Shown: positions 1 to 16,625, numbered from the stretch's first letter. The stretch: 64,000 nt of DNA from Alphaproteobacteria bacterium (GCA_965261735.1 OZ253470.1:4640001-4704000); one strand, 5' to 3'. The notes: generated by a model from the letters alone, not told the origin. A program made the numbers and translations.

Positions 1-411
1 GCTACCTCCGGGTCGTGCTCGGCGACCCGGAGAAGGTTACGTCGGCTCGCCGCCGCACGCCTATCTGGTGCACGTGCCTGAGGGTAAGAACGACCCCCGG
101 ACCTCCACCGGATGCACCCTCGACGAGCTCCCCGGCGACAAGGAAGCCGTCCCCTGGGGTGAATACCCCTTGATGGGCGAGGATATTCTTATGTTGGCCT
201 GAGCGGGGGCGGCGGCTACGGCGACCCGCTCGACCGCGATCCCGAGGCCGTGCCGCGCGACGTGAGCGGGAATCTCACGTCCGTGCACGATGCGAGGGAG
301 CTCTACGGCTTCGTGTTTACCGAAGCCAACGGCGCCGTCGATGCCGCGGCGACGCAGGCGCGCCGCTCATCGATCCGTGCGGCGCGCACGGACGCATTGG
401 CGGCGGCGTAG
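1..411 (+). pseudogene. 3' end of a hydantoinase B/5-oxoprolinase-like gene, frameshifted near 187-190
   Basis: Frame 1 from 202 reads SGGGGYGDPLDRDPEAVPRDV...ELYGFVF...VDAAATQARRSSIRAAR, ending at TAG 409-411; this is the typical hydantoinase B C-terminus. The upstream coding-like text (LDELPGDKEAVPWGEYPLMGEDIL) is in frame 2. Confidence 0.6.
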
Positions 412-468: not shown

Positions 469-1167
469 CTAGCCGGCGGCGGCGGTTTTCTCCTCGAAGA
501 GCGTGCCGGCATAGAACTCGCGCCGCTTCAAGCTGGCAACGAATTCATCCTTGAAGTTCCCCGGCACCGATCCGACGATACACTCGTTCACGAGCAACGC
601 ATCCGACCAGGCCTGGACAAGCGGGAGCGACTCCATCAGGCCGCTCGAGAGCCGCTCTTCAACGAATGCGAACCGCTGTAAGAACGGAGCGTATGCGGCA
701 TCCACCAGGCACAGGTTGGGACCATTGAAGTAGGGTCCGTCGTTGCCGCGCTCCTGGGCGATGGCCTGCTCGAGCTTGCTCAACCGCTGCGAGGCGAGCT
801 CGAGCTTTTCGCTCACCGCCTCCCTCGACTTCGTGTAGTAGACCCCGCTGAGTCCGCTCGCGAAATCCGGCACGTAGTCGGTCCACGCCCGATTGCGGGC
901 GCGCCTGATGGGATCGTCCGGATGGAGCCTCGGCTCGACCATCTCGTCGAGGTACTCGGCGATCGCGCTCGACTCGAACAGGGGCTGCTCGTCGACCACG
1001 AGGACGGGCACCTTCCCGTGCGGCGAGATTTCGAGGAACCAACCGGGTTTGTCGGTGAGGTCGACGTAGGTGACCTCGAATTCAACCTGCTTGGCGCGCA
1101 TTACAATCACGGCGCGCTGAACCCAGGGTCACAAAAGGTGGCTGATCAAGTGGTACTTCTTCACCAT
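469..1167 (-). CDS. Glutathione S-transferase family protein with in-frame UGA (probable selenocysteine) at the catalytic Cys position
   Basis: ATG at 1167 gives MVKKYHLISHLL*PWVQRAVIVMRAK..., continuing in frame into the 213-aa ORF. GST motifs SPHGKVPVL and LFESSAIAEYLDE are present. TGA at 1131-1129 sits where CP[YW]VQR has Cys. Confidence 0.85.
1094..1117 (-). promoter_or_regulatory. Candidate bacterial SECIS hairpin
   Basis: mRNA GCGCG(C)CGU-GAUUGUA-AUGCGCGC starts 11 nt after the UGA, has one bulged C, and has a 7-nt apical loop beginning with G. Confidence 0.55.
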
Positions 1168-1444
1168 GGAGCGTCTTCCCCGCGGATTTGTCGGTAACCA
1201 TAGGGCTAGATCCCACTGCCGTCAAAGGCACCCGGGCCAGGCGGCAAGCTCGACCGTAAGGGCGGCGTAGTGACGACCGGGCGCCGACGAGCACCTTCGC
1301 GTGCCAGATCGTGTTGTGGAGGGGCCGGCGCCCAACCGCGTACGCGACCGCGCCCATCGTATAGGTAATCCCGCCGACCAGGAGACGGTGAGCGCCGGAG
1401 CCCCTACTGCCGCCACCACTGCCGGAAAAATAGGGGAGGAAAGC

Positions 1445-1816
1445 ATGAATGCGACACTGGAGAGCCCGACGGAGGTCGTCGAGGCCTACGTCACGGCGGT
1501 GCGGACGTCCGATCTCGATCTGCTGCGCTCGCTCTGCGCCGACGACATGGAGTTGGTCAGCCTGCGCATGGCGGGTATCGAGAGCGGGCGGATGAAAGGC
1601 GCCGACGCGATTGTCGCCTTCTACGGCCAGTTTCTCGGAGAGTGGGGCGGCGCCGATCCGCATCCTGGACCGCTCCTGGTTTCCGGCAATACCGTCGCGG
1701 TCGAAATAGAGGCTCATCACGCCGACAGGATCGACGAGGTCGCGGACTTCTTCACCATCGAGAACGGCAAGATCACCCGGCTTGCCGTGTACTCCGGCCC
1801 GAGTCGACCGAAGTGA
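1445..1816 (+). CDS. SnoaL-like/NTF2 family protein
   Basis: ATG 1445 follows GGGGAGGA. The pattern VEAYVTAV...DLDLLRSL.ADD...GADAIVAFY...DFFTIENGKITRL is typical of NTF2/SnoaL. Confidence 0.75.
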   Translation: MNATLESPTEVVEAYVTAVRTSDLDLLRSLCADDMELVSLRMAGIESGRMKGADAIVAFYGQFLGEWGGADPHPGPLLVSGNTVAVEIEAHHADRIDEVADFFTIENGKITRLAVYSGPSRPK

Positions 1817-1835: not shown

Positions 1836-2990
1836 CTAGTGGATTGATCGGAACGAAAGAGTCCGATTTGAGATTCCGTATTGTGCGGTGTCATGCGAGT
1901 CTGTGCTATGCGCACCGGCATCCATTTTACTGTCACGTCTGGCGACCGTCAGCGATTGCAAGCTATCGTCGCGGACCCGAAGAGCTCGCAGAAACATGTC
2001 TGGCGGGCGCGGATCATCCTGAAGAGCGACGAGGGGCTCGGGAACTCGTCGATCATGGCCGAGACCGGCAAGTCCAAGACCTGTGTCTGGCGCTGGCAGG
2101 AGCGGTTCATGCACGAGGGTGTCAACGGCTTGCTTCGCGACAGGTCCCGTCCGCCTGGCAAAGCGCCGATCCCGCCGGAGCGCGTCGCCGAGATCGTCCG
2201 CCTGACCCAGCAAGCGCCGCCGCACGAGGCGACCCACTGGACGCTGCGCGCGATGGCGAAGGTTGCTGGCGTCGCGGCGTCGACGGTCCAAGCGATCTGG
2301 AAGGCCCATGGCCTCAGCCCGCACCGCTGGCGGCACTTCAAGCTCTCCAATGATCCCGCCTTCGCCGAGAAGCTCACAGATATCGTCGGCTTGTATGTCG
2401 ATCCGCCGGCCCATGCCGTGGTGCTGTCGGTTGATGAGAAATCACAGATCCAGGCGCTCGACCGCACCCAACCCGGCTTGCCGATGAAGAAGGGCCGCGC
2501 CGGTACGATGACCTATGATTACAAACGGCATGGCACGACGACGCTGTTCGCCGCGCTCAACGTGCTGGACGGTACGGTCATCGCACAGAACATGCAGCGC
2601 CACCGCCATCAGGAGTTCATCCGCTTCCTCAACCGCATCGAGCGCGAGGTGCCGACGGACAAGGCCGTCCACGTCATCCTCGACAACTACGCCGCGCACA
2701 AGAAGGACAAGGTCCGCGCCTGGCTCGCCCGCCATCCACGCTGGACCTTCCACTTCACGCCAACCTCGTGCTCGTGGCTCAATGCCGTCGAGGGCTTCTT
2801 CGCCAAACTAACGCGGCGCAGGCTCAAATACGGCGTCTTCCAATCCGTCGTCGACCTTCAGGACGCCATCAACCGATTTGTCCGCGAATACAATGACGCA
2901 AACCCAAAACCCTTCATCTGGAAAGCCGACCCCGATCATATCATCGCCGCACGAAACAGAGGGTTCCAAACGTTGGAATCAATCCACTAG
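1836..2990 (+). mobile_element. IS630-family insertion sequence, copy 1
   Basis: Ends CTAGTGGATTGATCGGAACG and CGTTGGAATCAATCCACTAG form an imperfect inverted repeat, with CTAG at both junctions. Encodes an HTH + DDE transposase. Confidence 0.92.
1881..2990 (+). CDS. IS630-family transposase
   Basis: Motifs SVDEK, YKRHGT, VILDNYAAHK and SWLNAVE. The start may be the ATG at 1908. Confidence 0.9.
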   Translation: MCGVMRVCAMRTGIHFTVTSGDRQRLQAIVADPKSSQKHVWRARIILKSDEGLGNSSIMAETGKSKTCVWRWQERFMHEGVNGLLRDRSRPPGKAPIPPERVAEIVRLTQQAPPHEATHWTLRAMAKVAGVAASTVQAIWKAHGLSPHRWRHFKLSNDPAFAEKLTDIVGLYVDPPAHAVVLSVDEKSQIQALDRTQPGLPMKKGRAGTMTYDYKRHGTTTLFAALNVLDGTVIAQNMQRHRHQEFIRFLNRIEREVPTDKAVHVILDNYAAHKKDKVRAWLARHPRWTFHFTPTSCSWLNAVEGFFAKLTRRRLKYGVFQSVVDLQDAINRFVREYNDANPKPFIWKADPDHIIAARNRGFQTLESIH

Positions 2991-4290: not shown

Positions 4291-4428
4291 GGCGCGAAAC
4301 CTAGGGGATTGGCGCCTGGGCGTCAATCGGCGCCAGCGCGACCGGCATGAGCGATGCCCCATGGCGGACGCGATCCGCCACGACGTATATACTTCAAGCT
4401 CACGCACCCCTGACGACGGAGGCAGGCC

Positions 4429-5571
4429 ATGGCCGGCAACGTGACGCGGCTGCAACACAAGAACAGCTTCCACCCCGAGGCCGAACGCTCCGCCACGCTG
4501 CCGGCGCACTACTACTACGACCCGGACATCGCCCGGCGCGAAAAGGAAGAGGTGTTCTACAAGACGTGGCAGTTCGTCGGCTATCGACACGACCTCGCCG
4601 AGGCCGGGAGTTATCTCACGGCCACCATCGTCGACCAGCCGATCTTCGTCGTGCGCGCCAAGGACGGGAAGTTGCGCGCCTTCTACAACGTGTGCATGCA
4701 CCGCGGCCATATCCTGCTCGAGGGCAAGGGCAACGTGCGCATGATCACGTGCCCGTTCCACGCCTGGACCTATGACCTCGAGGGCAACCTCAAGGCCGCC
4801 GGCAACTCGGAGAACGTGGCGGGCTTCGATCACGGCGATTTCTGCCTGCCCGAGATCCAGGTCGAGGAGTTCATCCACATGGTGTTCGTGAACCTCGATG
4901 CGGACGCCCCGGCGCTCGCCAGCCAAGTGGAAGGCATGGAGGCCGAGGTACGCGAGACGGTGCACAATCTCGATGACCTGACGTTTGCCCGGCGCGACCG
5001 TTACGACATCAAGTGCAACTGGAAATTCATTTTCGACGGTCTCGAATGCTACCACTGCCCGCACATCCATCCCGAGGCGACGAACTCGCTCGACTGGGAG
5101 CTTCGCAAGTCGTGGGAGTACGGGATCTGGCAGCGCCACAGCAATCCGATCCGCGGCGACACGGGCGACAATCCCGACCGTCCTTACCGGGTCGAATCGA
5201 GCGATCCGCAGCGCGGCTCCAACATCTGGTATCTGTGGCCCAACCTGATTCTCATTTCGCACTGGGGCCTCTCCAACTTCAAGACGATGCACATTCTTCC
5301 GGCGGGCCCGGAGACGGCCGTCCAGAACGTCGACAGCTTCTGTCTCGCCAACCCGCCGACGGAGAGCGACATCGCCGGCATGAACCGTTTCCGCGACGTG
5401 GCCCAAGCCCAGGACATCCACGCGATGGAGCGGCAGCAGCTCGGCGTCCACGCCCGTGGCTACCAGCAGGGTCGCTTGATGGTCGACGCGGAGCACTCGT
5501 GGCGCAGCGAGCACGCGGTGCACCACTACAACAAGCTGCTGTGGGAGGCGCTCAACGGCCCGACCTATTAG
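4429..5571 (+). CDS. Rieske non-heme iron oxygenase alpha subunit, CntA/YeaW (carnitine/choline monooxygenase)-like, paralog 1
   Basis: Rieske motif CMHRGH...CPFHAW, mononuclear-iron ECYHCPHIH, C-terminal RGYQQGRLMVD...SEHAVHHY. Confidence 0.88.
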   Translation: MAGNVTRLQHKNSFHPEAERSATLPAHYYYDPDIARREKEEVFYKTWQFVGYRHDLAEAGSYLTATIVDQPIFVVRAKDGKLRAFYNVCMHRGHILLEGKGNVRMITCPFHAWTYDLEGNLKAAGNSENVAGFDHGDFCLPEIQVEEFIHMVFVNLDADAPALASQVEGMEAEVRETVHNLDDLTFARRDRYDIKCNWKFIFDGLECYHCPHIHPEATNSLDWELRKSWEYGIWQRHSNPIRGDTGDNPDRPYRVESSDPQRGSNIWYLWPNLILISHWGLSNFKTMHILPAGPETAVQNVDSFCLANPPTESDIAGMNRFRDVAQAQDIHAMERQQLGVHARGYQQGRLMVDAEHSWRSEHAVHHYNKLLWEALNGPTY

Positions 5572-6952: not shown

Positions 6953-8346
6953 GATCGTGTCCCGCGGAGTGGTGTAAGAGCGTTGCGCTCTACGCGGCTC
7001 CCGGCGGATAGGGCCGGGACGTTCAGGCTGCCACGGTGGGCAGCGTGATGGGGACACCATCGCTCAGCGGAGCGATGGATTCCAGCGTCATGTATCTCCT
7101 TGAGACGGCCCACTCGTCGTTCTGCTCGAGAAGGATGGCGCCGACGAGCCGTGTGATGGCGGCTTCGTTGGGAAAGATACCGACGACGTTGGTGCGACGC
7201 TTGACCTCGGCATGGAGCCGTTCGATCGGGTTTGTGGAGTGCAATTTCTGGCGGTGCTCCCTGGAGAAGCTCATGTAGGCGAGGACGTCGTGCTCGGCTT
7301 CGTCCATGAGAACTGCCAGCTTGGGCACCTTGGGCCTGAGCTGGTCGGCGACCTGGCGCCACTGGACCTTCGCGCTGTCGGCGTCCTCCTGGGCGAAGGC
7401 GGTGGCGACGAAGGCGGAGACGACGCGCCGGCCCTGGCGGCCGGCATGGGCCAGCAGGTTGCGGGCGAAGTGCACGCGGCAGCGCTGCCATGTGGCGCCG
7501 AGGATCCGGGTCGCGGCGGCCTTCAGGCCCTTGTGGTCGTCGGAGATCACCAGCTTCACGCCGCGCAGCCCGCGCCGGGCCAGCGAGCGCAGGAACTCGG
7601 TCCAGAAGGTCTCGGCCTCCGACGCGCCGATCGCCACGCCCAGGACCTCGCGGCGGCCTTGGTCGTTGACGGCCACAGCCACGGTCACCGCGACCGAGAC
7701 GATGCGTCCGGTCTGGCGCACCTTCACGTAGGTGGCGTCGAGCCACAGATAGGGCCAGTCGCCCTCCAGCGGTCGATCGAGGAAGCCGGTGACCTTATCG
7801 TCGATCTCGCCGCACAGCCTGGAGACCTGGCTCTTGGAGGCGCCCGACATCCCCATCGCCTGAACCAGATCGTCGACCGAGCGGGTCGACACCCCCTGGA
7901 TGTAGGCCTCCTGGATCACCGCAGCCAGCGCCTTCTCGGGATCTTCAGCTCGACCGTGCCGGCCCGCGTCTCCCAGGACCGGTCGCGGTAGCCGTTGCGA
8001 TGGGTGATACGATCCGCCGAGCGCTCGCCGTGCCCGGCGCCGGTCAGGCCCTCAACCTCCAGTGCCATCAGCCGCTCGGCCGTGAAGCCGATCATCTCGC
8101 AAAGCAGATCGGCATCGGAGCTCTTCTCCAAAAGCGCGCGCAGGGTCATCATGTCCTGGGTCATCGTGGTTCTCCTTCGGGTCAGGTTGGTTTGCACTAG
8201 CCCAACCCTAAACCGGAACCGCGATGGCCTCCGCTGTGGATAGCCGGCTTGCCTACGCCAGACTCTCGGCGGTCGCTACGGCAAGCCGCCTACCCACAGC
8301 TACCAGAGGCTCCAACAACTCCTACACCACGTCCTGGGACACGACC
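6953..8346 (-). mobile_element. IS256-family element
   Basis: 8-bp duplication ATGTCTGC at 6945-6952 and 8347-8354. Inverted ends GATCGTGTCCCGCGGAGTGGTGTAAGAG / GGTCGTGTCCCAGGACGTGGTGTAGGAG. Confidence 0.9.
7023..8164 (-). pseudogene. IS256 transposase, frameshifted by an internal deletion near 7935
   Basis: The N-terminus (MTQDMM...RNGYRDR...GTVELKIP) and the 298-aa core (YLWLDATY, ISDDHKGL, QRCRVH, STNPIER) are in different frames, and the usual linker segment is missing. Confidence 0.85.
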
Positions 8347-11210: not shown

Positions 11211-12065
11211 TTAGAAGCGGGCCACCAGATCGCCAAACATCGGTCCAGGCCGCTTCCGGCGGTTATAGCGATACTCAAACTCCTTCACATACTTCTGAAG
11301 GTGCTTCCCGGACACATGAACGTGCGTCCCGCGAATCGACAGCTTCAACCGCGCCCAAAAGCCCTCAATCGAGTTCACATGGCTAGAGCCGCGCGCGTAC
11401 TGGCCCGCGCTGTGGTTGACGGTCTGGTGCGTATACCCAATCGTCGCCAATCCGCTGTAAGACTTGAGTTCGTCAGTATGAACGGTGCTACCCGGCTCGA
11501 CGTTCTCGGAGATAAACGCCTGCAAAGTCCGCTTTCGAACGTTCGGGACAACGTTCGCCATCACGTCGCCGTCGCGCTCCAGCATCCCGAACACCACGGT
11601 CTTGTTCGGAGCGCCGCGACCGCGCTTGCCACCGGTCGTACGGCCACCAACATAGGTCTCGTCGGCTTCAATATCGCCGTCCAGCGGCCACTCTCCGTCA
11701 GTATTAGCCATGTGTTTGCGGATCAAATGGCCCATGCGCCAAGCCGTGGGATAGGACACGTCAAGTTGGCGCTCCAGTTCCTTCGCGGGGACGCCGTGGC
11801 GCGATGTGGTGAACAGGAATATGGCGTAGAACCACTTGTGAAGCGGCAGATGCGTGCGGTGCATGAATGTGCCTGCGCACGGATAAATGTGGTGTTTGCA
11901 GTGCTGGCAGAGATACGCGCGATCACGTGCCAGGCGGTAGAACTTCCCATGCGCCCCGCACTTCGGGCAGTCAATCTCGGTGCCGCCGTAACGCTTCACC
12001 ATTATGTGGTGAAGGCACGCCTCGTCATCGGGAAACTGCTGCTGAAAATCGTAGAAAGTCGTCAT
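11211..12065 (-). CDS. IS1595-family (ISXO2-like) transposase
   Basis: Zn-ribbon CPKCG...CQHC, EADETYVGG, VHTDE, HVNSIEGFW, YVKEFEYRYNRR. ATG 12065 follows GGAGG. Confidence 0.92.
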   Translation of the reverse strand: MTTFYDFQQQFPDDEACLHHIMVKRYGGTEIDCPKCGAHGKFYRLARDRAYLCQHCKHHIYPCAGTFMHRTHLPLHKWFYAIFLFTTSRHGVPAKELERQLDVSYPTAWRMGHLIRKHMANTDGEWPLDGDIEADETYVGGRTTGGKRGRGAPNKTVVFGMLERDGDVMANVVPNVRKRTLQAFISENVEPGSTVHTDELKSYSGLATIGYTHQTVNHSAGQYARGSSHVNSIEGFWARLKLSIRGTHVHVSGKHLQKYVKEFEYRYNRRKRPGPMFGDLVARF

Positions 12066-12179
12066 TATTTCCTCCTGTCCCCTGCATATGGGGATTGAGA
12101 TGTGACGTGTCAAGTTGATAATCGCGTTCTATTATCTAATGATGACGTCGTTCATGAGTACATGACCCAATGCCGTCCG

Positions 12180-14387: not shown

Positions 14388-15470
14388 GCCGCCTCCTTTG
14401 CCCGCCGTGCAGGTCCAGTGCCGATCCACATGTTAGCCGCGCCGATGCCCGCGTGTCTTTCTTGCGCGGTATGGGCGCGGTCGGCTGGGAGCGAGAGGCG
14501 CGCTGTAACCCCACGAGGAACAACCGATGTCCCAAGCGGTGGCCAGATCCAAGCATCCCTTCCGCCCTGAGCCTGAATATTCGGGCACGCTACCGAGCTA
14601 CTACTACTGGGACCCGGAAATCTACGAGCGCGAAAAGGAGGAGATCTGGTTCAAGACCTGGCAGCTCGTCGGCCACACCATCGATCTCACGGAGCCGGGC
14701 GACTACTTCACCGCCGACATCCTCGATCAGAAGATTCTCGTGTGCCTCGGCAAGGACCGGAAGATACGCGCCTTCTACAATGTGTGCATGCACCGCGGCC
14801 ACGTGCTGGCCGAAGGGAAGGGATGCAAGAACATCTTCACGTGTCCCTTCCACGCCTGGTCCTATGACCTGACTGGCGCGCTCAAGGCCGCCGGCAACGC
14901 CGAGAACGTGGCCGGCTTCCGTTACGAGGAGTTCGGGCTGGCGGCGGTGCAGGTCGAGGTCCTGGCCAACATGGTGTTCGTCAACCTCGACCCGAATGCC
15001 GGCTCCCTCGCGGACCTGGTCCCGGGGCTCGAGGACGACATCCGCGCCTCGGTGCCCGACTACGATGACCTCAAGCTCGCCCGCATCGACGTGCTCGAGG
15101 TCCGCGCCAATTGGAAGTCAATCCTCGACGGGCTCGAGTGCTACCACTGCCCGATTATCCATCCCCACGTGTCGACCGGCAAGGAGGGCTATATCGAGCG
15201 CCGTTTCGTGGGCGACGAGTACGGCTACTGGCAGAAGCACACGTCCTACGGCAACCGCGAGGTCATCGAGAAGCACAAGGAGCGACTACCGCACGATCTC
15301 GGGACGGCCCAGGTCATCGACGTCCCGATCTACTACCTGTGGCCCAACCTCATCCTGATCGCGCACCAGGGGCCGAGCAACTTCAAGATCCTGCGCGCGG
15401 TGCCCGACGGGCCCGAGCACACCTATCGCATCAACCTTGCCTATCCGGTTGACACCCACACCCACTAGGG

Positions 15471-16625
15471 CTAGTGGATTGATCGGAACGAAAGAGTCCG
15501 ATTTGAGATTCCGTATTGTGCGGTGTCATGCGAGTCTGTGCTATGCGCACCGGCATCCATTTTACTGTCACGTCTGGCGACCGTCAGCGATTGCAAGCTA
15601 TCGTCGCGGACCCGAAGAGCTCGCAGAAACATGTCTGGCGGGCGCGGATCATCCTGAAGAGCGACGAGGGGCTCGGGAACTCGTCGATCATGGCCGAGAC
15701 CGGCAAGTCCAAGACCTGTGTCTGGCGCTGGCAGGAGCGGTTCATGCACGAGGGTGTCAACGGCTTGCTTCGCGACAGGTCCCGTCCGCCTGGCAAAGCG
15801 CCGATCCCGCCGGAGCGCGTCGCCGAGATCGTCCGCCTGACCCAGCAAGCGCCGCCGCACGAGGCGACCCACTGGACGCTGCGCGCGATGGCGAAGGTTG
15901 CTGGCGTCGCGGCGTCGACGGTCCAAGCGATCTGGAAGGCCCATGGCCTCAGCCCGCACCGCTGGCGGCACTTCAAGCTCTCCAATGATCCCGCCTTCGC
16001 CGAGAAGCTCACAGATATCGTCGGCTTGTATGTCGATCCGCCGGCCCATGCCGTGGTGCTGTCGGTTGATGAGAAATCACAGATCCAGGCGCTCGACCGC
16101 ACCCAACCCGGCTTGCCGATGAAGAAGGGCCGCGCCGGTACGATGACCTATGATTACAAACGGCATGGCACGACGACGCTGTTCGCCGCGCTCAACGTGC
16201 TGGACGGTACGGTCATCGCACAGAACATGCAGCGCCACCGCCATCAGGAGTTCATCCGCTTCCTCAACCGCATCGAGCGCGAGGTGCCGACGGACAAGGC
16301 CGTCCACGTCATCCTCGACAACTACGCCGCGCACAAGAAGGACAAGGTCCGCGCCTGGCTCGCCCGCCATCCACGCTGGACCTTCCACTTCACGCCAACC
16401 TCGTGCTCGTGGCTCAATGCCGTCGAGGGCTTCTTCGCCAAACTAACGCGGCGCAGGCTCAAATACGGCGTCTTCCAATCCGTCGTCGACCTTCAGGCCG
16501 CCATCAACCGATTTGTCCGCGAATACAATGACGCAAACCCAAAACCCTTCATCTGGAAAGCCGACCCCGATCATATCATCGCCGCACGAAACAGAGGGTT
16601 CCAAACGTTGGAATCAATCCACTAG
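15471..16625 (+). mobile_element. IS630-family insertion sequence, copy 2
   Basis: Same ends and CTAG junctions as 1836-2990. The transposase differs by one residue (QDAI vs QAAI). Confidence 0.93.
15516..16625 (+). CDS. IS630-family transposase
   Basis: 369-aa ORF, near-identical to 1881-2990. Confidence 0.9.
   Translation: MCGVMRVCAMRTGIHFTVTSGDRQRLQAIVADPKSSQKHVWRARIILKSDEGLGNSSIMAETGKSKTCVWRWQERFMHEGVNGLLRDRSRPPGKAPIPPERVAEIVRLTQQAPPHEATHWTLRAMAKVAGVAASTVQAIWKAHGLSPHRWRHFKLSNDPAFAEKLTDIVGLYVDPPAHAVVLSVDEKSQIQALDRTQPGLPMKKGRAGTMTYDYKRHGTTTLFAALNVLDGTVIAQNMQRHRHQEFIRFLNRIEREVPTDKAVHVILDNYAAHKKDKVRAWLARHPRWTFHFTPTSCSWLNAVEGFFAKLTRRRLKYGVFQSVVDLQAAINRFVREYNDANPKPFIWKADPDHIIAARNRGFQTLESIH

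Follow-up and report, generated by a model that had tools for sequence, protein, structure and literature searches.

A family of glutathione S-transferases (GSTs) containing selenocysteine (Sec) has been in print since 2005, when four sequences were reported from the Sargasso Sea (PMC1088965), and twelve Sec-GST sequences were reported from GOS in 2008 (PMC2398784). Reviews published in 2022 (PMC9312934) and 2026 (PMC13188914) list a GST-like selenoprotein under the labels PF13409 and COG0625, described there as having no second redox residue, and the 2026 review remarks that almost all selenoproteins of this kind, identified by computation, are largely uncharacterised in function. A search of the full-text literature returned no biochemical study of the Sec-GST family. 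Here we describe a gene of this kind from a 64,000-nucleotide stretch of an Alphaproteobacteria bacterium genome (GCA_965261735.1, OZ253470.1:4640001-4704000; hereafter the window). An earlier note, made from the sequence alone, had proposed that the minus strand between positions 469 and 1167 encodes a 232-residue Sec-GST with the motif UPWVQR. That proposal is backed by the Sec machinery of the genome, by TGA-bearing orthologues and their cysteine counterparts, by a hairpin following the UGA and by independently assembled contigs. It is very probable that 469-1167 is an intact gene for an omega-like, Cys-type GST in which selenocysteine at residue 13 (U13) serves as the nucleophile.

The gene resembles the published family in being a GST (COG0625, with PF13409 as its best Pfam match) that carries a single in-frame TGA paired with cysteine in homologues, in the presence of a hairpin after the UGA, and in its occurrence amongst environmental Proteobacteria. 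The expectation that Sec-containing homologues would be known mostly from environmental sequences is in keeping with the published descriptions of the family, which were made from metagenomes. The tables of those accounts give no CxxU or UxxC arrangement, which fits the lone U of UPWVQR. The published family and the UPWVQR subfamily studied here are likely to be one and the same, the match having been made by Pfam and COG label and by description rather than by sequence; the representatives named in the reviews (PPR62222.1 and MEK9676863.1) were not among the accessions of the ten database clusters that were looked up. The gene is a further member of the Sec-GST family and, since this family has been known since 2005, selenoprotein specialists will find in it a confirmation rather than a surprise. 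New here are the complete 5.03-Mb genome context, a count of 69 TGA to 11 Cys forms, the co-occurrence of selA with the TGA form, the freezing of wobble bases in a putative selenocysteine insertion sequence (SECIS) and the extent to which the family has been mis-annotated.

Read on the minus strand from 1167, the gene opens with ATG GTG AAG AAG and passes through CTT TTG TGA CCC TGG GTT CAG CGC to GTA ATG. The frame thus consists of MVKKYHLISHLL, the TGA at 1131-1129 and PWVQRAVIVMRAKQ..., with no further stop until the TAG at 471-469, and its translation with TGA as U yields 232 residues (MVKKY...UPWVQRAVIV...), as had been proposed from the in-frame ATG. The positions of these and other features are collected in the table. 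Searches of the 232-residue form against Pfam returned GST_N_2 (8.6e-19), GST_N_3 (7e-17) and GST_C_2 (4.7e-7), with GST_C also above its cut-off, and the N-terminal models GST_N_2, GST_N_3 and GST_N scored 56-68 bits. The GST_N match runs from residue 5 (profile position 3 of 76), that of GST_N_2 from residue 13, and GST_C_2 covers residues 125-190; a thioredoxin-like N-terminal domain and the helical C-terminal domain of a GST are both predicted from these matches. Because the Pfam domain starts at residues 5 and 13 of the long form, the short open reading frame (ORF) begins too late to include strand beta-1 or the active-site residue, and the claim of the earlier note that the 213-residue ORF is missing its N-terminal GST strand was borne out. 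The window's protein deviates from the orthologues at two of the 77 columns that are conserved at >=95% (T12L and N67S), and other orthologues deviate at up to five. It also has His at position -3, where Ser is found in 65 of 70 Sec forms.

Positions of the Sec-GST gene, its signals and surrounding features, counted from the first nucleotide of the window
Feature	Position	Strand	Remarks
Full selenoprotein GST coding sequence	469..1167	(-)	232 aa, U at residue 13, TAG stop 471-469
Twelve codons ahead of the Sec codon, MVKKYHLISHLL	1132..1167	(-)	Includes the start codon; encodes strand beta-1
TGA, read as selenocysteine U13	1129..1131	(-)	
Short frame reported by gene callers	469..1110	(-)	213 aa from GTG 1110; ORF list
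SECIS-like hairpin	1094..1117	(-)	Stem GCGCGC 1117-1112 / GCGCGC 1099-1094, loop CGUGAUUGUAAU 1111-1100
Shine-Dalgarno-like GGGGAAG	1175..1181	(-)	7 nt 5' of ATG 1167; read from sequence
Putative sigma-70-like promoter, TTGACG-17 nt-TATGGT	1197..1225	(-)	About 30 nt upstream of the ATG
Remnant of hydantoinase-B/oxoprolinase-family gene	1..375, extending to -103	(+)	Convergent with the GST and separate from it, 5'-truncated, frameshifted; identified by blastx with the 11 HyuB paralogues of the same genome
SnoaL-like gene	1274-1813	(+)	
IS630-family element	1836..2990	(+)	Nearest upstream neighbour after the SnoaL-like gene; Pfam DDE_3, HTH_32/23/29
Further IS630 copies	15471-16625; -5033..-3879 (L131 6967-8121)		
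IS1595 elements	11214-12128; L131 9090-10139		
IS256/Mutator transposase	7026-8051		
Rieske ring-hydroxylating alpha subunits (three)	-1576..-374; 4414-5568; 14509-15465		

The signals expected ahead of a start codon at 1167 could also be recognised. Within 350-1500 the sole promoter-like site was that listed in the table (one found against 0.1 expected), and a TTGACC-17-TATGGT arrangement is readable 5' of two orthologues (L022 and L023) as well. A Shine-Dalgarno-like word lies 4-16 nt ahead of codon -12 in 60 of the 70 Sec-form genes. Contigs from two DNA studies span 300-1403 with no change at 1129-1131, and contigs from the RNA libraries of two further studies, spanning 750-1172 and 916-1172, both carry the TGA; at the codon where the earlier note had considered that reads might reveal TGC or TGT, these independent runs thus have TGA instead. 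The RNA-library contigs of both studies stop at the very same position, 1172, which is 5 nt upstream of the ATG, with no loose end, and the DNA contigs continue. This shared end may represent a 5' end or a k-mer effect and counts as no more than a weak hint; judged from the promoter-like site, transcription would start about 18 nt away from it.

For the comparison of orthologues one genome per species was scanned, and the best 80 of 405 relatives were used. These loci are 58-73% identical to the window's protein and bear the labels of metagenome-assembled genomes of Alphaproteobacteria, Rhodospirillales and Hyphomicrobiales, along with some Gammaproteobacteria. The codon at the Sec position is TGA in 69 of the 80 loci and TGC or TGT in the other 11, and more distant homologues (31-40% identity) show CPYVQR, CPYAHR or CPFAQR, so that the comparison with homologues proposed in the earlier note yielded both TGA and Cys at this position. 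Amongst 40 related genomes, the five closest matches, which come from three families of the class and are 64-73% identical, all had TGA. When 251 genomes were sampled evenly across the class, eight gave a match at E<=1e-60, and TGA was present in seven of these. For 50 of the 80 loci the host genomes were searched for selA. The gene turned up in 37 of the 39 genomes with the TGA form and in 2 of the 11 with the Cys form, counts that include related genomes and hence are not independent.

The best-surviving alternative, itself very unlikely, is that the UGA terminates translation and that the functional product is the annotated protein of 210-213 residues, initiated internally at M23 or V20. 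An internal start is available at the ATG at 1101, and 86 of the 120 nearest database proteins begin just past the Sec codon (VQRA..., V/MI.LRAK or MRAK); the remainder comprise 33 full-length Cys forms (CPWVQR) and one cluster with W at the site. The public call for this genome is likewise 210 residues long, starting from ATG 1101 (M23) with MRAKQVEF (P0002, P0122), which is the N-terminal truncation by gene callers that the earlier note had foreseen. However, this short product would be devoid of strand beta-1 and of the catalytic residue, and the Cys-form orthologues are full length, at 224-233 residues (a few calls are longer), with CPWVQR. The nine codons before the TGA are, moreover, under protein-level selection. 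In the 70 Sec-form genes, codons -9 to -1 have an entropy of 0-0.5 bit (one of 0.80) at their first and second positions, the variable residue -2 excepted, and of 0.8-1.8 bit at the third position, whilst an ATG is found at codon -12 in 47 of the 70, at -11 in 17 and at -10 in four (68 of 70 in all). On account of this coding-type variation and of the ATG at -12 to -10, the stretch 5' of the TGA is translated in frame with the sequence downstream. The promoter-like site upstream of ATG 1167 and the co-occurrence of TGA forms with selA likewise speak against termination.

The genome assembly is a single contig of 5,031,631 bases that is 98% complete, and all components of the Sec machinery that the earlier note had suggested looking for (selA, selB, selD and tRNA-Sec) were present in it. 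The tRNA-Sec gene (selC) lies at G000:C1:1506224-1506315 and scored 75.7 bits against a gathering score of 47; ARAGORN identified it as tRNA-SeC with the anticodon tca. The selD gene (298 bits, cut-off 125) is situated 1.3 kb from it, and selA (517.5 bits) and selB (404.3 bits, cut-off 242) are mutually adjacent about 70 kb before the window. The matches to selA, selB and selD each exceed their curated cut-offs, and none of the machinery genes contains an internal stop.

With this machinery in place, it is still less likely that the UGA is read as a residue other than Sec, whether by a reassigned code (giving Trp or Gly) or by near-cognate read-through (giving Cys or Trp). The point in favour of such a reading is a database cluster (P0086, 50 members) with full-length calls in which the motif is WPWVQR. 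TGA nonetheless terminates 1242 of the 2284 long open frames in the genome, making it their commonest end and indicating that the genome is not TGA-recoded, and it serves as the terminal stop of the orthologous GST genes in L025 and L026. Of the 80 loci, the 11 without TGA all have Cys as the aligned residue and none has Trp, the complete Sec machinery tracks the TGA form, and the hairpin is conserved at the RNA level. As to cluster P0086 itself, some of its calls are full length and others are truncated to 212 residues; the W presumably derives from translation with a table in which TGA is Trp.

Bacterial SECIS elements of the E. coli fdhF and fdnG type are hairpins located within the coding sequence just past the UGA, and the hairpin of the GST gene, which begins 11 nt past the UGA, is placed in the same manner. 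PMC13188914 quotes the consensus model of Zhang and Gladyshev, in which the bacterial element (bSECIS) has a loop of 3-9 nt, a stem of 4-16 bp, a G in the first two loop positions, a distance of 16-37 nt from the UGA and an energy of <=-7.5 kcal/mol. The window's fold agrees with these constraints (apical loop GAUUGUA, spacing of 20 nt, -15.3 kcal/mol), as do the minimum free energy (MFE) folds of 51 of the 70 Sec forms for all four published constraints, and all 70 lie at <=-8.5 kcal/mol. The bacterial SECIS check proposed in the earlier note thus located a SECIS-like hairpin after the UGA. In the MFE folds seen most often, 16-22 nt separate the UGA from the apical loop (17 nt for the 6-bp stem alone), with a G in the first two loop positions (CGUG...) and an energy well under -7.5 kcal/mol. 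Unlike the E. coli elements, the GST stem is a short, all-GC, self-complementary hexamer with a loop of nominally 12 nt, and its binding by SelB is putative.

The six stem pairs were formed in 98.5% of 390 cells (65 distinct sequences). In three sequences one G-C pair has become A-U through changes in both arms, one pair alternates between G-C and G-U, and in L068, L089 and L102, where the 3' arm is altered, the 5' arm can pair with a nearer CGUGCU. A clearer sign came from synonymous sites. The codons of the 5' arm and the loop start are nearly fixed in the Sec forms, as CAG (66/70), CGC (70/70), GCC (68/70) and GTG (67/69), whilst the 11 Cys forms encode the same amino acids at the equivalent positions with CGG (5), CGC (4) or CGT (2), with GCC (6) or GCG (3), and with GTC (6), GTG (3) or GTT (1). 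Other four-fold codons in the Sec forms are unconstrained, at 1.4-1.9 bit. With these wobble bases fixed in the Sec forms but not in the Cys forms, the RNA-level constraint is limited to genes that need UGA recoding, and this freezing of synonymous sites is a stronger signal than the covariation. In two metagenome runs (X5 and X13), short contigs of other organisms were observed to match only 28-43 nt, from the UGA through the 5' arm of the hairpin (window 1105-1132), with 1-4 differences, and to diverge past the 5' arm into other Sec-GST N-termini; these contigs offer an independent sign of nucleotide conservation in the SECIS.

A number of observations weigh against the reading of this gene as an intact Sec-GST with a functional SECIS. 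Covariation in the stem is thin, with one pair showing a double change in three related sequences, and the GCGCGC arms, when slid by 2, still pair in 82% and 67% of cells; because the arms are self-complementary and slid registers pair, covariation alone is weak evidence. The MFE folds of 19 of the 70 Sec forms fall outside the consensus bSECIS constraints, the 6-bp stem alone leaves a 12-nt loop compared to the 3-9 nt of the model, and no Rfam family matched within 1000-1250 at E<=10, where only a 5.4-bit chance match to a long non-coding RNA model was returned. The window's copy has Leu just before the Sec residue (codon 1134-1132), a position occupied by Thr in 69 of the 70 Sec forms. The gene also sits beside a broken gene in a stretch ridden with insertion sequences (ISs), and no neighbour amongst the 81 loci is conserved enough to hint at a pathway. 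Furthermore, the RNA-library contigs show the presence of the TGA sequence and do not prove transcription, the support for Sec at U13 lies at the level of DNA and RNA sequence rather than of protein, and the chemistry and candidate substrates proposed below are drawn from homology only.

Some of these observations could instead be accommodated by a recent TGC- or TGT-to-TGA nonsense mutation in a decaying gene, a caveat that the earlier note had itself raised. The surroundings are indeed decayed, with a hydantoinase-B remnant downstream and an IS630 element that has 52 BLAST rows, and the Leu before the TGA is unusual. Yet the TGA recurs at the 69 orthologous loci of other species and in the seven matches of the even class sample, the rest of the frame is intact save for the two departures in 77 conserved columns, and the wobble bases 3' of the TGA are frozen in TGA forms only; a nonsense mutation is refuted by these findings and is scarcely credible. 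An error of sequencing or assembly, for which no supporting point was found, has an equally negligible probability, since contigs from four runs of four studies (two DNA, two RNA-library) cover the codon with no difference and the orthologues agree.

The class of the Sec-GST was investigated with a profile of six orthologues searched against PDB, of which the best 60 of 153 matches were considered. The best solved relatives were Leishmania TDR1 (4ags; 9.6e-31) and human GST omega-1 with other omega-class structures (1.8e-24 to ~2e-21), followed by tau, DHAR and lambda GSTs and SspA. U13 was aligned with the Cys of CPF in GSTO1 (8qll) and with that of CPFCHR/CPFVDR in TDR1, and in 1eem, also GSTO1, residues 9-197 of the query fell on residues 28-212 of the chain, which places U13 on residue 32. 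We take this residue to be Cys32, the catalytic cysteine of GSTO1, to which glutathione is joined in a mixed disulfide. All the orthologues share K52-V53-P54 and E65-S66, and the VP and ES of these segments are presumably the cis-Pro and Glu-Ser motifs of the glutathione site. The Sec-GST thus shares with the omega GSTs and TDR1 the [C/U]-P-aromatic-x-x-R signature at the start of helix alpha-1 and retains the VP and ES motifs, but it differs in being bacterial, in its low identity, in having Sec for Cys and Trp for Phe after the Pro, and in the absence of an N-terminal extension (Sec being residue 13). By these comparisons the protein is an omega-like, Cys-type GST with a predicted Sec nucleophile in a U-P-aromatic motif at the start of helix alpha-1. 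No second conserved Cys was found in the orthologue alignment, which suggests a single-nucleophile ('monothiol') mechanism. Searches of NCBIfam gave seven weak matches, all far under their cut-offs, from which it appears that the collection holds no dedicated model.

The Xi-class glutathionyl-hydroquinone reductases (PcpF and YqjG) also have an active site of the Cys-Pro-Trp type, and reductive deglutathionylation of the sort they perform would suit the aromatic-catabolic setting of the window. Xi-class GSTs are approximately 310-330 residues long, with an N-terminal extension and a CPWA motif. Membership of this class was rejected for the Sec-GST, which has 232 residues with Sec at 13, and no Xi structure was present among the best 60 of 153 PDB matches.

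Following the established bacterial mechanism, SelB in complex with Sec-tRNA(Sec) would bind the hairpin whilst the ribosome stands at the UGA, and Sec would be inserted in place of termination. By homology to the omega GSTs and TDR1, the resulting selenolate would be positioned at the N-terminus of helix alpha-1, from where it could attack a glutathionylated or oxidised substrate. Candidate reactions include thiol transfer or deglutathionylation, and the reduction of dehydroascorbate or of S-glutathionyl adducts of aromatics. An enzyme-Se-S-glutathione intermediate would form, and a second glutathione would resolve it to give oxidised glutathione (GSSG). By analogy, a Se-S glutathione intermediate is probable, and the enzyme may have an activity of the thiol-transferase or reductase type.

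The Sec-GST gene is a well-supported case of a selenoprotein missed by standard annotation, in a family that is widespread in uncultured Alpha- and Gammaproteobacteria, and function predictions made from the N-truncated database entries describe an enzyme without its active site. For expression work the locus offers a defined gene whose start codon and UGA are accompanied by a SECIS and a putative promoter. Naturally occurring pairs of Sec and Cys forms, 60-70% identical, would allow the contribution of selenium to GST chemistry to be tested, and the SECIS is a compact one whose constrained bases have been mapped through natural variation.

The 3' end of the GST gene is abutted by the hydantoinase-B remnant, in agreement with the suggestion of decayed genes nearby. 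Its segment -103..196 (frame 3) corresponds to residues 443-536, and 244..375 (frame 2) to residues 553-596, of a 607-residue paralogue (E 3.4e-38); the remnant retains only residues 443-596, with a frameshift between 196 and 244, and the genome carries 11 intact hydantoinase-B paralogues. Pfam searches of the short frames 2-202 and 199-411 returned nothing, and a genome search with PF02538 gave no match reaching the window. On the other side, the IS630 element at 1836-2990 is 100% identical over 1155 bp to the copy at -5033..-3879 and to many others in the genome. A BLAST search of the 5.03-Mb genome with this 1155-bp element gave 52 rows, one of them the query itself, and the 39 other IS630 rows among the matches listed were of 1080-1170 bp at 99.5-100% identity. 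A proliferation of ISs on this scale would account for the broken genes around the GST.

The earlier note had placed the gene in an oxygenase-rich catabolic island. This description holds for the window, in which the Rieske subunits are accompanied within ~15 kb by a VanA-like oxygenase, a luciferase-like monooxygenase and a flavin oxidoreductase of the old yellow enzyme type, but the link is not conserved in the orthologues. When the ORFs of the 81 loci were clustered, with GST shadow frames set aside, the largest shared neighbour was present in 15 loci; in L070 this neighbour is a class-IV aminotransferase adjoining an alanine racemase. An oxygenase-island link as a trait of the family was consequently rejected, the neighbourhood not being common to the orthologues. 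Given its own promoter-like site and a neighbourhood that is not shared, the Sec-GST gene appears to be a stand-alone redox or detoxification gene rather than part of an oxygenase pathway.

The relationship of the Sec and Cys forms was inferred with a quick maximum-likelihood tree of the 81 orthologues, obtained by a short search and rooted on two distant Cys homologues, the 80 loci having been picked by their likeness to a Sec form. It was found that all 11 Cys forms are nested within the Sec forms, in two places, with three changes needed in the tree. Nine of them make up a clade from genomes in which the SelA search found no SelA, and two Cys forms from SelA-bearing genomes are placed elsewhere. 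This pattern, together with the distribution of SelA, fits a replacement of Sec by Cys upon loss of the Sec trait. A broader scenario, which we consider speculative and rather improbable, would have the Sec-GST as one of very few clients, perhaps the main one, of the Sec machinery in this lineage, and the family as ancestrally Sec with Cys conversion tracking loss of the trait; the nearly invariant SECIS (GCGCGC stem and CGUG loop start, in Alpha- and Gammaproteobacteria) would then mark a gene-plus-SECIS module that moves between lineages.

With respect to other potential clients, none of the five usual selenoprotein families (FdnG-type and FdhA-type formate dehydrogenases, AhpD-like, Rdx/SelW and SelD) had an in-frame TGA in this genome: the matches to TIGR01553, TIGR01591, TIGR01926 and TIGR00476 contained none, and PF10262 had no match, no genome-wide Sec/Cys screen having been run. 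The words of the GST SECIS, sought elsewhere in the genome, gave chance-like matches only. A formate-dehydrogenase-alpha-like match at G000:C1:1320035-1322005 contains one in-frame TAG and could represent either two neighbouring genes or a single broken one. The arrangement of the Sec machinery genes also differs amongst relatives. Here the tRNA-Sec gene stands beside selD (G000:C1:1504014-1506315), distant from selAB. Alphaproteobacterial tRNA-Sec genes nested in selB are the subject of PMC8124441, and in the relatives G001 (C7:48286-51523) and G004 (C2:238730-241946) the tRNA-Sec gene lies ~2.0 kb past the end of selA, at or just beyond the end of selB.

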